This document shows, piece after piece, positions 4,643 through 10,796 of a stretch of 13,872 nucleotides of DNA. This DNA is from an uncultured archaeon (GTDB lineage: Archaea; Asgardarchaeota; Lokiarchaeia; Sigyniarchaeales; SOKP01), in assembly GCA_964583985.1 (NCBI GenBank), contig CAZOYD010000082.1, positions 1-13,872 of the forward strand, given 5' to 3'. Each line of letters starts with the position of its first letter. The first letter of the stretch is position 1. The notes below the pieces were generated by a model, which saw nothing but the letters and a program-made list of their open reading frames with translations, did no database searches and was not told the DNA's origin. The translations under genes and the position numbers were made by a program.

Positions 4643-4660
4643 ATGGGAAACAATTCCCAT
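4643..4660. promoter_or_regulatory. Palindromic operator/hairpin, copy 1 (ATGGGAA-ACAA-TTCCCAT)
   Basis: Perfect 7-bp inverted repeat with a 4-nt spacer. The same core occurs at 6604 and 10781. Confidence 0.75.
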
Positions 4661-4693
4661 TAAGTATATATATTTTTTAGAGGAATTATATAG

Positions 4694-6343
4694 ATGACCA
4701 AATTTGCGTTAATGACACATAAATCGAGCATAATAGGTTCTAGAACTCGTGTTGAAGATTCTTGTGAATCTGGTTTATGTCCAATATGTATTGCTGATTG
4801 TCCTGTCTTTTGTGAAGTATCGAAATCAGCATTGAGAGGGAGAGAAGTTCTCTATCCACGAAGAGAATTATTTGGAAATTCTACGGCTGGAAGTCCTAAA
4901 GATTTTGGTTTTTCATATGCAGACTTCCAAATTCAATTCGAGGTTCGTGGTGTGAAAGGGATTGAAGCAGATATCGATAAAGTCATTTTTCCAAATGTTG
5001 ATACCACGACTTATTGGGGTAACATCAAGCAAAAACTTCCGGTGATAATAGCTGGCTTGGGAAGCACGTATGTTGCGAAAAATAATTGGGATGGATTAGC
5101 AATGGGAGCTGCCTTAGCGGGTATTAGCATTACCGTTGGAGAAAATGTAGTGGGCATGGATCCTGAGTCAAAATTTGCAAATCACGCACACTATCCAAGT
5201 GTTTTATCTTCTGAAGACATGAAATATCGCATATTGTCGTATAGAGAATATTGGGATGGAGTAAATGGGGATATTATTGTCCAAAAAAATGTAGAAGATA
5301 CAAGGCTTAAAGTATTTGATTATGTCGTGTCAAAGTTGGATGTAGAATCACTTGAACTAAAATTTGGCCAAGGAGCTAAAGCAATTGGAGGTGAAGTAAG
5401 ACTCAATGATCTCGAACGTGCTCAATTGCTTCAAGATAGGGGTTATTTAGTATTACCTGATCCATCTGATCCCAACGTTGTTGAACAATGGAATAACGGA
5501 ATAATTCTTGATTTTGAACGACATAGTCGTGTTGGTTTGAGTACTACCGAAGAAATTCTTGAAGAAATCGACCATATCAGGGAAAAGGGGATTAAGAATA
5601 TATTTATAAAAACTGGCGCATATCGTCCTTCTGCCACGGCATGGATTTTAAGATTAGGACTTGAAGGAAAGGTGGATGGAATGACCTTTGATGGTGCTGG
5701 TGGTGGAACTGGAATGAGTCCAGTAAGCATGATGAATGAAGGATCGATTCCTACCGCATACTTAGAAGCCTTAGTTGTAGGATGCTTGGATATGATTAAA
5801 AATAAAAATCCGAATGCTAAAATACCATCAATGTCAATTGCCGGAGGAATTGCAAATGAAACTCAAATGTTTAAAGCACTTGCCATGGGATCACCTTATA
5901 TTAAATGCATAGCAATGGCAAGAGCACCCATTACCGCGGCAATGAAAAGTAAATATGTTGGAGATGTCATTAAACGAAATGAAGCTACTCCAGCGATGCT
6001 AAAAACTCTAGGATTCCCAAGCACTAAAAACCCTGAATCATTGACACTTAATGAAGCATTCATTGAATATGATAATTTACAATTGACCCATCCCGATAAA
6101 GAAATTCCCGCTTCAGCGATCGGAGTGTACACGTTCTTTGCAAGCAAATTAGGAATTGGCATCAAGCAATTATTAGCAGGAGTCAGAAAATTTAACCTTG
6201 ATTTAATCGATCGAAATGACATAGCTTATTTATCTCAACGAGCGAAGAGCGTGATCGATCAGTGGAACTTAGGAATTTCTTCTCAAGAATCTCTCGATTT
6301 TGAACAAGTAAAAAATGAGATTTATTCGGGGAATTACAAATAA
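4694..6343 (+). CDS. Stand-alone FMN-binding glutamate synthase family protein with an N-terminal CxxCxxxCxxxC motif
   Basis: ELKFGQGAK.IGGEV, IKTGAYRP, DGAGGGTGMSP and IAGGI....MFKALAMG motifs of the GltS FMN barrel. CPICIADCPVFC near the N-terminus. GAGG RBS at 4680-4683. Confidence 0.88.
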   Translation: MTKFALMTHKSSIIGSRTRVEDSCESGLCPICIADCPVFCEVSKSALRGREVLYPRRELFGNSTAGSPKDFGFSYADFQIQFEVRGVKGIEADIDKVIFPNVDTTTYWGNIKQKLPVIIAGLGSTYVAKNNWDGLAMGAALAGISITVGENVVGMDPESKFANHAHYPSVLSSEDMKYRILSYREYWDGVNGDIIVQKNVEDTRLKVFDYVVSKLDVESLELKFGQGAKAIGGEVRLNDLERAQLLQDRGYLVLPDPSDPNVVEQWNNGIILDFERHSRVGLSTTEEILEEIDHIREKGIKNIFIKTGAYRPSATAWILRLGLEGKVDGMTFDGAGGGTGMSPVSMMNEGSIPTAYLEALVVGCLDMIKNKNPNAKIPSMSIAGGIANETQMFKALAMGSPYIKCIAMARAPITAAMKSKYVGDVIKRNEATPAMLKTLGFPSTKNPESLTLNEAFIEYDNLQLTHPDKEIPASAIGVYTFFASKLGIGIKQLLAGVRKFNLDLIDRNDIAYLSQRAKSVIDQWNLGISSQESLDFEQVKNEIYSGNYK

Positions 6344-6564
6344 ATGTAATTTAATTCTATTAAAATGAGGAAATTTTGCTTTCATTCCTTTCTGAATATT
6401 TTTTAGCCAAAACGGAAGGTTTAAATAGGAGTCTCGTAATAAATTAAATTTTTTTCACGGTTATATATTTTTAATGAAATTTAATTATAAATATAATATT
6501 TTTTTAAAATATCCAACAAAAAATTTATGAAATATTAGACGTATACATATTTCATGTAATAACA

Positions 6565-6572
6565 TTTATAAA
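6565..6572 (+). promoter_or_regulatory. Putative TATA box of the 84-aa gene
   Basis: TTTATAAA starting 39 bp upstream of palindrome copy 2. Confidence 0.5.
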
Positions 6573-6603
6573 GGAATTTAAGTAAATATAATTATAAGTC
6601 TAA

Positions 6604-6619
6604 TGGGAAATATTTCCCA
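6604..6619. promoter_or_regulatory. Palindromic operator/hairpin, copy 2 (TGGGAA-ATAT-TTCCCA)
   Basis: Perfect 16-bp palindrome. It extends as TCTAA...(bulged C)TTAGA over 6599-6625. Confidence 0.75.
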
Positions 6620-8957: not shown

Positions 8958-9053
8958 TTTAATATGGATTGTGAATGATAAAAACTAATTCTCAGGAAAA
9001 TTAAAATTTAATCATATTATCGCAATAATTTAGCGTTCTCTAAAAAACATTTA

Positions 9054-10613
9054 TTATTCATATTCAATTGTACTTGGAGGTTTATTAGAGATATCATACA
9101 CGACTCGATTAAATCCCTTGACTTCATTTATGATCCGAGTTCCTATTTTCTCTAACAAATCCCAATCTAACTTTGCAAAACTCGCAGTCATGACATCTTT
9201 TGATTTAACAGCCCGGATCGCGCAGATATATTCATATGTCCGGAAGTCTCCCATAACACCTACTGTTTTTATTGGCAATAACACGCAAAAAACTTGCCAT
9301 AATTCATTATAGATACCGGCTTTTTTTACCTCTTCTAATAGGATAAGATCTGCTTCTCTCAGAATATCCAATTTTTTTTTATCGATGGCTCCCACACATC
9401 TTACTGCTAAACCAGGACCTGGAAAAGGATGCCGATTGATTAATTCTGATTCTAATCCTAGTTGCTTACCAATCTTTCGCACTTCATCTTTATACAGATC
9501 TTTTAAGGGTTCAATTATTGTCAATTTCATATCTTCTGGTAGCGTGAGATTATGATGAGATTTAATTTTTGCGGCATTTTTACTCGTAGCGGCTGTTTCT
9601 ACTCTATCTGGATAAATCGTTCCTTGGGCAAGGAATTTAATTGACGAATGTTCAGCTTCTAACTCAATAGTTTGTTTTTCAAATACTTCTATGAAAGCGT
9701 GTCCGATTATCTTCCGTTTTTCTTCAGGATCATCGATATTTTTAAGACGTTTTAGAAACAAATTTTCAGCATCAACATAGTGAAAGTTTTTAAATTTTAA
9801 TTTTTCCTTAAATTGTTTCTGGACTTCAATTTCTTCGTTTTTTCGTAGTACTCCATTATTGACAAAGATGCAATGCAATCTATCACCTATAGCATTATGA
9901 AGTAAAACAGCACATACAGATGAATCAACGCCTCCACTTAATCCAAGTACTACTCTATTTATTGGTCCTACTTTTTTCTTTATGGATTCAATCGCAGTTT
10001 CAATCCAATTTTCTAATTTCCATTCTTTTTTCGCGCCTGCAATGTTGTATATAAAATTTTCAAGAATCTTTATGCCTTTTAAAGTGTGAACAACTTCGGG
10101 ATGAAATTGAACACCATATATACGAAGTTTTTCATTTCCAAATGCAGCAATAGGACAAGTACTAGTTTTTGCAAGTGTTTTAAATCCTTCAGGCATTCTT
10201 GAGATTTGATCGCCATGAGACATCCACACAATTTCTTCTTTATCAAGGGAGTAAAATAGCGAATTATTATCCAAGATTTCTAATTTGGTCTTTCCATACT
10301 CTTTTTTTTCATTAGGTTGAATTTTCCCTCCTAGTTGTTGAATTATCAAGTGCAAACCATAGCAAATACCCAAAACGGGAATGCCTTGAGTCTCGACATA
10401 TTCATAAAAACCATCTACGAGTTTTGGACTGTTTTCTTCATAAACACTACTAGGACCCCCTGAAAGTATCAATGCTTTAGGAGATAGAACCATTAATTCA
10501 GGTATTGAAATGTTGTGAGGGATGATTTCAGAATATACTCCTAATTCTCTTACACGTCTAGCAATTAAGTGAGAATATTGAGAGCCCATATCGATAATGT
10601 AAATTTTATCCAT
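9054..10613 (-). CDS. guaA: GMP synthase (glutamine-hydrolysing), fused GATase + ATP-pyrophosphatase
   Basis: DMGSQY, SGGP, GICYG (catalytic Cys), QFHPEV, LSGGVDS, QGTIYPD, KSHHN, RHPFPGPGLAVR and C-terminal KPPSTIEYE. Confidence 0.97.
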   Translation of the reverse strand: MDKIYIIDMGSQYSHLIARRVRELGVYSEIIPHNISIPELMVLSPKALILSGGPSSVYEENSPKLVDGFYEYVETQGIPVLGICYGLHLIIQQLGGKIQPNEKKEYGKTKLEILDNNSLFYSLDKEEIVWMSHGDQISRMPEGFKTLAKTSTCPIAAFGNEKLRIYGVQFHPEVVHTLKGIKILENFIYNIAGAKKEWKLENWIETAIESIKKKVGPINRVVLGLSGGVDSSVCAVLLHNAIGDRLHCIFVNNGVLRKNEEIEVQKQFKEKLKFKNFHYVDAENLFLKRLKNIDDPEEKRKIIGHAFIEVFEKQTIELEAEHSSIKFLAQGTIYPDRVETAATSKNAAKIKSHHNLTLPEDMKLTIIEPLKDLYKDEVRKIGKQLGLESELINRHPFPGPGLAVRCVGAIDKKKLDILREADLILLEEVKKAGIYNELWQVFCVLLPIKTVGVMGDFRTYEYICAIRAVKSKDVMTASFAKLDWDLLEKIGTRIINEVKGFNRVVYDISNKPPSTIEYE

Positions 10614-10736
10614 GAAAATTTAACCAAAATAATAGTATAATTAGATTTAAATTAAGTTTTAACGTTAATGAACCTTTGTTATATAAAATATATATCTTCA
10701 TTATGATGTTTTCATTCTGAATTGAAAGTAACTCGA

Positions 10737-10744
10737 TTTATATA
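10737..10744 (+). promoter_or_regulatory. Putative TATA box upstream of the 922-aa oxidoreductase gene
   Basis: TTTATATA starting 44 bp upstream of palindrome copy 3, the same spacing as copy 1. Confidence 0.5.
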
Positions 10745-10780
10745 ATAGAACTTTGAGTAATTAAAGAATTGTATTAATTA

Positions 10781-10796
10781 GGGGAATTCATTCCCC
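10781..10796. promoter_or_regulatory. Palindromic operator/hairpin, copy 3 (GGGGAA-TTCA-TTCCCC)
   Basis: 6-bp inverted repeat with a 4-nt spacer. The outer pair changes symmetrically from T-A to G-C relative to copies 1 and 2. Confidence 0.72.

Follow-up and report, generated by a model that had tools for sequence, protein, structure and literature searches.

The stretch of DNA analysed here, called the window in the following, is the whole contig CAZOYD010000082.1 (13,872 nt; assembly GCA_964583985.1) of an uncultured archaeon, in which we studied a short palindrome, GGGAA-N4-TTCCC, and the genes that it precedes. The genome (G000 in our numbering, genus g1) comprises 3,795,352 bp with 31.7% GC, is 100% complete by marker genes, contains a full-length archaeal small-subunit rRNA, and has homologues labelled Promethearchaeota (Asgard). 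The rRNA and the names of the homologues rule out a bacterial origin, to which GH20, M3 peptidase and fused GuaA genes had pointed. Exactly three matches to the palindrome are found in the 13.9-kb window, at 4645, 6605 and 10782, all of them in AT-rich intergenic DNA and each 5' of a plus-strand gene. The three genes code for a flavin mononucleotide (FMN) enzyme resembling glutamate synthase (GltB-like), an 84-aa winged helix-turn-helix (wHTH) protein, and a heterodisulfide-reductase-like protein with an embedded GltD-like module (HdrD::GltD). An original prediction, made from the letters of the window, had taken them as one regulon with the wHTH gene as its likely autoregulated factor. Coordinates are collected in Table 1; Rfam has no family match anywhere in the window.

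Table 1. Features of the window bearing on the palindrome and its candidate target genes.
Feature	Position	Strand	Sequence	Remark
Lrp/AsnC-family regulator gene (Lrp170)	3580..4065	+		conserved neighbour, alternative candidate binder
TATA box of GltB-like promoter	4600..4607	+	TTTATAAG	kept in G006 and G022 with an A-rich stretch resembling a B recognition element (BRE)
Candidate operator 1 (site 1)	4644..4659	.	TGGGAAACAATTCCCA	palindrome upstream of GltB-like gene
GltB-like FMN enzyme gene	4694..6343	+		549 aa; Pfam Glu_synthase, N-terminal Cys cluster
TATA box of wHTH promoter	6565..6572	+	TTTATAAA	kept in G006 and G022, partly in G003
Candidate operator 2 (site 2)	6604..6619	.	TGGGAAATATTTCCCA	palindrome upstream of wHTH gene
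84-aa minimal winged-helix protein gene, candidate regulator	6650..6904	+		AlphaFold model, fold matches
Distal TATA-like box	10737..10744	+	TTTATATA	44 nt before site 3
Candidate operator 3 (site 3)	10781..10796	.	GGGGAATTCATTCCCC	upstream of HdrD::GltD gene; this genome only
Proximal TATA box of HdrD::GltD	10853..10860	+	TATATAAA	homologous to the orthologues' conserved core promoter
HdrC/HdrD-like iron-sulfur/CCG protein gene with embedded GltD-like flavin module	10900..13650	+		916 aa from ATG; TTG at 10882

The palindromes lie where they had been predicted, and the window holds no fourth exact copy. Measured from the start of a TTTATA box, the palindrome follows at 44, 39 and 44 nt for sites 1, 2 and 3, and these distances too agree with the original prediction. 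Dinucleotide shuffles of the window gave an expectation of 0.02 copies, and three copies were never reached in any shuffle. Genome-wide, four exact copies were found, of which three are on this contig; by our own arithmetic, the chance of such clustering is about 5e-5. Since k-mer frequencies predict approximately 2.9 exact copies per genome, the observed four are no excess, and the signal is therefore one of clustering, placement and conservation, not of count. The genome also has looser non-coding sites of the form GGGA-N6-TCCC, nine out of eleven of which then have A.

Two further copies were noted in passing. The fourth exact copy (G000:C6:64563-64576) lies 333 nt 5' of a paralogue of transcription factor B (TFB), recalling TFB-linked sites in genus g13 that are described below; its conservation within g1 was not seen, as other g1 sites with an A6/T6 spacer, taken as possible orthologues, do not adjoin TFB. 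A copy with one mismatch, GGGAAAAGATCCCC, which can also be read as a GGGGA-N5-TCCCC dyad, occurs at 6870-6883, in the part of the wHTH gene that encodes the wing, and is probably coincidental.

The call of a small wHTH protein is borne out by structure prediction. The AlphaFold model has a disordered N-terminus, three helices (residues 24-35, 40-47 and 53-65) and then a two-strand wing, so that the predicted structure shows the three helices plus beta-hairpin wing of a winged helix; the mean pLDDT (predicted local distance difference test) is 78 for the whole protein and 85-91 over residues 21-84. VIA-align gives Z values of 8-9.3 to wHTH domains of the MarR, ArsR and Z-alpha types, with Rv1404, AntR, NolR and MarR among the top matches, and Foldseek against wHTH domains gives a probability of 1.0 at an E-value of about 1e-2. 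Sequence searches with the 84-aa protein against Pfam, NCBIfam and PDB gave no match, even at loose thresholds.

A family profile was used for searching the relatives. The wHTH family is found in 24 of 24 g1 genomes and in 17 of 19 genomes of g12, as well as in g20 and g23, all four being genera of one taxonomic family; a genome usually has two paralogues. Nothing is found with the profile in g13, g14 and g16-g18, nor in three other families of the order, and g15 gives a single weak match of 71 aa. Distant paralogues were likewise absent from this genome (profile search, E<=50) and from g13. The g15 match (L269:1498-1713, genome G102) is a 71-codon frame with an E-value of 1.4e-4, no ATG and no palindrome nearby; its TTG is preceded by a GGCGGTG stretch resembling a ribosome site, and it may be a distant member of the family.

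Conservation was evaluated at the promoters of orthologous genes. For the wHTH gene, 43 distinct gene copies from relatives in four genera were used, and a site was counted if it had at most two mismatches with the GGG/CCC core intact. Such a palindrome is present no more than 100 nt upstream of the start in 30 of the 43 copies, where 0.07 would be expected from the background of this genome. In the orthologous promoters the arms are kept, and the spacer and flanks drift. The distal TATA box 39-44 nt 5' of the site is conserved as well, with a 10-nt deletion between the two in G022. That the site recurs in the wHTH gene's own promoter fits the proposed autoregulation. In eight copies of a shorter 74-aa paralogue, the palindrome is instead located about 500-590 nt upstream, in a conserved region poor in open reading frames (ORFs).

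The region upstream of the shorter paralogue has some features of its own. In the relatives L024, L030, L033, L034 and L038, about 1.2 kb without a conserved ORF separates the 74-aa paralogue from a divergent 154-aa gene of unassigned family; the palindrome lies in the middle of this gap and adjoins a conserved block, TATTTAAATGGG. The equivalent gap in this genome (G000:C18:28191-28489) is only 298 nt long and has no palindrome. The longer gap in the relatives could hold an unannotated RNA or a small gene.

The GltB-like promoter gives a second set of orthologous sites, and its conservation across g1, g12 and g20 supports this gene as a predicted co-target. The GltB-like protein of the window is 91% identical to its closest relatives, and orthologues with 71-79% identity are found in most genera of the family. 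The gene adjoins an 84-type wHTH gene in every relative possessing it, being placed either behind the wHTH gene or, as in the window, ahead of it with a site of its own. Site 1 is found at the same place in the orthologues (exact in G022, with one mismatch in G006), and in the g12 and g20 genomes the site is 38-41 nt before the GltB-like start. In total, a site is upstream of the GltB-like gene in 7/7 sampled genomes of the wHTH-bearing genera g1, g12 and g20, in addition to the window, and is absent in 13 genomes of g13, g15-g18, g21, g22 and g24. The sole exception is a site in one g15 genome, 61% complete, where the wHTH gene was not found.

A third promoter with an orthologous site belongs to an ATP-citrate-lyase-like (ACL-like) gene outside the window. 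A looser site (G000:C20:15498) precedes the probable TTG start of this gene by approximately 99 nt and a conserved TATA box by about 24 nt. Conservation of this site extends over g1, g12, g20 and g23, genera that all possess the wHTH gene; three g14 genomes, in which the ACL-like gene is present and the wHTH gene is not, lack it. The ACL-like gene (G000:C20:15611-16903) probably starts at a TTG located 50 codons upstream of the first ATG; if the ATG is taken instead, the Pfam ATP-grasp alignment does not start until profile position 50.

In order to describe the motif, 59 distinct related sites were analysed, with positions 1-16 numbered across the 16-mer. The consensus is R-TGGGAa-N4-tTCCCA-Y with an invariant core of GGGA-N6-TCCC. 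The 3' flank is A in 57 sites, and the 5' flank is T in 33, A in 15, C in 7 and G in 4. Pairing between the outer positions (1 and 16) is seen in 35 of the 59 because the 3' flank is nearly always A whatever the 5' base; the co-varying outer pair seen among the three copies of the window thus does not hold over the larger set. The A-T pair adjoining the core (positions 5/12) is broken four times and never compensated, and the next inward pair (6/11) is Watson-Crick in 38/59 sites. Neither compensatory nor G-U changes are seen in the 59 sites, which show no covariation. It is the identity of the bases which is kept, not their pairing.

These observations bear on whether the element acts as DNA or as RNA, two alternatives which the original prediction had left side by side. 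This genome uses both leaderless and Shine-Dalgarno-led mRNAs. As the TATA box of a leaderless gene begins some 30 nt ahead of its start codon, sites 1 and 2 fall at about +10 to +30. Counted from the conserved distal TATA boxes, the predicted starts are 9-15 nt before the palindrome, and sites 1 and 2 would consequently be transcribed. A hairpin at the transcript's 5' end, with a stem of 5-7 bp and a loop of 4-6 nt, might then stabilise the mRNA or be bound by a protein. The hairpins predicted from leader segments of 55-64 nt are stable (minimum free energies of -10.3, -13.8 and -15.0 kcal/mol, z from -2.0 to -3.5), and the wHTH fold is also near that of Z-alpha domains, which bind nucleic acids in the Z form, RNA included. 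However, the lack of compensatory and G-U changes is not what an RNA stem would leave behind, the site is 5' of the TATA box at the ACL-like gene and at the core promoter of HdrD::GltD and would not be transcribed from those, the 10-nt deletion in G022 moves the site onto the predicted start, and the 74-type copies are some 500 nt away from their gene. We therefore regard an RNA element as very improbable. Sites occur both 3' and 5' of TATA boxes, and tandem palindromes 21-22 bp apart, i.e. two helical turns, are found in other genera (L114, G036:C119:304-340; L227, G060:C65). Placement on both sides of TATA, tandem copies and the absence of covariation together favour a protein-bound DNA dyad, and a dyad with sequence conserved at orthologous promoters and without RNA-type covariation has the features of an operator for an archaeal transcription factor. 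Of the two predicted alternatives the DNA operator is thus the better fit. The tandem palindromes of G060 precede a gene for a 2-oxoacid oxidoreductase gamma subunit.

From the sites, their placement, their conservation and their co-occurrence with the wHTH gene we infer a binder, a sign of regulation and a signal. With moderate confidence, we propose that the palindrome is a double-stranded DNA operator, that its likeliest binder is a dimer of the 84-aa wHTH protein, and that the protein would repress its own gene together with the GltB-like gene. Sites 1 and 2 lie downstream of TATA, where archaeal regulators block recruitment of RNA polymerase or its escape from the promoter, and a dimer occupying them would do the same. 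At the ACL-like and HdrD::GltD genes, where the site is 5' of the conserved TATA box, the same protein might activate, or else control a second promoter further upstream. In favour of this proposal, the g12 genome G046, which is 99% complete, is without the wHTH, GltB-like, ACL-like and Lrp genes together.

Several points weigh against the proposal. The 84-aa protein has no evident dimerisation or effector domain. The invariance of GGG/CCC among the 59 sites is partly by construction, as it was a search criterion. As the genera with the wHTH gene may be a single clade, common descent confounds the co-occurrence of sites and gene. Finally, sites exist where the wHTH gene does not. Comparison of N4 with N5 spacing as a control gives 65 versus 33 sites in g1, 29 versus 13 in g12 and 18 versus 3 in g13, which has the strongest N4-specific excess yet no detectable wHTH gene. 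After this control, the N4 excess is real only in g1, g12, g13 and a few genomes of the families f2 and f4. Conserved sites in g13 are found beside TFB/GNAT, EF1A-like and EamA genes, and 2-oxoacid oxidoreductase genes are preceded by sites in g15 and in another family, neither of which has the wHTH gene. The g13 sites and those of g15 and f2 imply that another protein can use the motif.

In g13, the orthologous intergenic positions are L143, L152 and L154 (TFB/GNAT), L147, L150 and L155 (before the EF1A-like gene), and L146, L148 and L157 (EamA/aldo-keto reductase); the GGGAA-N4-TTCCC arms are kept and the spacers vary. An order-wide enrichment of the motif, obtained with a reversed-pattern control, was rejected as mostly a k-mer artefact, as TGGGA occurs 3528 times and AGGGT 1538 times.

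The palindrome could accordingly belong to a transcription factor of wider distribution, either the adjacent Lrp/AsnC protein or another regulator, with the wHTH gene only one among its conserved targets, and the enriched and positionally conserved N4 palindromes with the same arms in g13, as well as the sites at POR/Ior-type operons in g15 and f2, would be explained in this way. Lrp-type regulators commonly control amino-acid metabolism, and orthologues of Lrp170 flank the wHTH locus in g1 and g12. Other orthologues of Lrp170, in g13-g18 and f2, have no site, GltB-like gene or wHTH gene nearby, and the upstream region of the Lrp gene itself (3371-3579) contains no site, for which two reasons Lrp/AsnC is the weaker candidate. 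Moreover, absence of the wHTH gene coincides exactly with loss of the site from the GltB-like and ACL-like promoters, though Lrp170 is present in g13 and g14, and no candidate factor of matching distribution was found. We consider a wider factor of this kind rather unlikely, and in what follows the wHTH protein is kept as the candidate binder.

The HdrD::GltD gene is a different case from the other two genes of the window. The protein combines an HdrC-like ferredoxin domain, a GltD-like flavin domain and two CCG domains, and is unusually divergent, with one identical sequence on record and the next database relatives at most 64% identical. In 14 orthologues (50-60% identical) no GGGA-N6-TCCC was found within 1.4 kb upstream, the region searched being 1,276 nt in one and 616 nt in another, where the contig ends. 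Site 3 is thus specific to this genome. What the upstream regions of the 14 orthologues have in common is a block, AATAATAGCATATTTAAA, about 57 nt before the ATG, and site 3 lies approximately 55 nt upstream of the conserved core TATA box.

Site 3 might therefore be a chance or non-functional copy which leaves HdrD::GltD outside the regulon, as some 2.9 exact copies per genome are expected from k-mers, no orthologue has the site, the G...C flanks are atypical, and the gene has its own conserved promoter downstream. Against this, the probability of a random copy falling on this 13.9-kb contig is only about 1% by our own arithmetic, and less for intergenic DNA; the TTTATA spacing of 44 nt is the same as at site 1; and the flanks of the module, including the distal TTTATA, resemble the wHTH promoter more than their composition would give, with a score reached by 4/500 flank shuffles (uncorrected, in one of three comparisons). 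We judge a chance origin unlikely. On the 1% figure site 3 is taken as probably functional, albeit evolutionarily young, and the similarity of the flanks hints that it is a copied promoter-operator module. The predicted regulon of three genes thus finds support for the wHTH and GltB-like genes, is not carried by conservation for HdrD::GltD, and is not a closed set.

A functional link between the FMN enzyme and the GltD module had also been proposed. As a link through the palindrome it holds for this genome only. A paralogue of the GltB-like enzyme, of 527 aa and about 48% identical, is found directly behind a GltD-like gene in the relatives L062, L063 and L065; none was found in the genome of the window at E<=1e-50. 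This gene order supports GltD-type proteins as putative partners of these enzymes.

Further candidate targets were found outside the window. A looser site is located 109 nt upstream of a 2-oxoacid:ferredoxin oxidoreductase operon (G000:C10). It is not kept in two other g1 genomes. Operons of this kind are also preceded by sites in g15, where these are in tandem, and in f2; the operon is probably an additional target in this genome. No site was found within 300 nt upstream of the two glnA and five gdh-type genes of this genome.

A Cys-rich zinc-ribbon protein of approximately 71 aa was observed in relatives (L032:848-1063, L036:1543-1758, L041:819-1046 and L204). It has CxxC, ends in LLVYE or LLIYE and has no Pfam family, and its leader contains the palindrome as well as a strong GGTGAT ribosome site. 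Some g1 genomes have the zinc-ribbon gene between the wHTH and GltB-like genes (L246-L248). The two weak homologues in this genome (C59:17896 and C17:29694) have no site within 300 nt upstream.

Comparison with known systems was made for four types of regulator. The NrpR operator of Methanococcus maripaludis is GGAA-N6-TTCC as quoted in PMC2723118. Set beside the operator in that quoted form, the present element is likewise an archaeal palindrome with GGAA/TTCC half-sites near promoters related to glutamine or glutamate, sometimes in tandem; it differs in having N4 between GGAA and TTCC and an extra conserved G/C pair in each arm, both in the three sites of the window and in the 59 related sites. 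The prediction of NrpR half-sites at a different spacing is therefore correct. The NrpR regulatory domain NRD1_2 (PF01995) was not found in the genome at E<=0.01, in a search whose control finds the domain in the methanogens M. jannaschii and M. acetivorans, and P-II was not found in this genome either. The candidate binder here is a wHTH core of about 65 residues without a sensor domain. An NrpR regulon is ruled out by the N4 spacing, the absence of PF01995 and the lack of a site before glnA and gdh.

The second comparison is with TrmBL1, a repressor at sites downstream of TATA and an activator at sites upstream of BRE/TATA (PMC4706686). The Thermococcales glycolytic motif of TrmBL1/Tgr is similar in that the same site occurs on both sides of TATA (PMC4706686). 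The motif itself is unrelated, TrmBL1 is a large protein of the TrmB family that has a sugar-binding domain, and the sign of regulation would be transferred here by analogy. OxsR of Haloferax volcanii is a redox regulator of the TrmB family with a single wHTH, which activates or represses depending on the position of its site (PMC9426492). It is, like the 84-aa candidate regulator, a small archaeal protein with one wHTH and a conserved cysteine in the N-terminal helix; the counterpart here is C28 in helix 1 (residues 24-35), invariant among 15 family sequences. The motif of OxsR is CG-rich, however, and the 84-aa protein has no match to TrmB (PF01978): none of the 15 family members matches PF01978 at E<=5, the sole appearance being a sub-threshold match to HTH_18. 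A thiol switch at C28, by analogy with OxsR, is speculation. The autoregulated repressors of the MarR and ArsR families, finally, share the fold class and have the operator in the regulator's own promoter. They differ from the 84-aa protein, which has no sequence-family match to them, no ligand or metal sites, and none of their dimerisation helices, being too short to hold these.

A broader version of the proposal can be put forward only tentatively, and we hold it to be doubtful. The wHTH, with its core of around 65 residues and no effector domain, and confined to a few Loki-type Asgard genera, would then be a dual activator and repressor of a small carbon-nitrogen-redox regulon comprising the GltB-like, ACL-like and 2-oxoacid oxidoreductase genes and, in this genome, the HdrD::GltD disulfide-reductase fusion. 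The signal might enter through the invariant cysteine, as an OxsR-like thiol switch, or through a Cys-rich zinc-ribbon partner under the same control. Copying of the whole module of TATA box and operator would bring in new targets.

An autoregulated wHTH protein with a dyad operator is of an ordinary kind. The protein family and the motif are undescribed in the literature and databases searched: no paper describing the motif or the 84-aa protein was found in the literature search, nor did an experimentally mapped regulator-operator pair in Asgard archaea turn up there. An 84-aa protein and a 16-bp site make a cheap, directly testable pair in a lineage with essentially unexplored gene regulation. 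The pair, whose predicted targets belong to glutamate-synthase-like, citrate-lyase and 2-oxoacid metabolism, illustrates how genes where carbon, nitrogen and redox metabolism meet might be controlled in an uncultured lineage that has neither NrpR nor P-II. HdrD::GltD exemplifies a target that seems to have joined a regulon recently.

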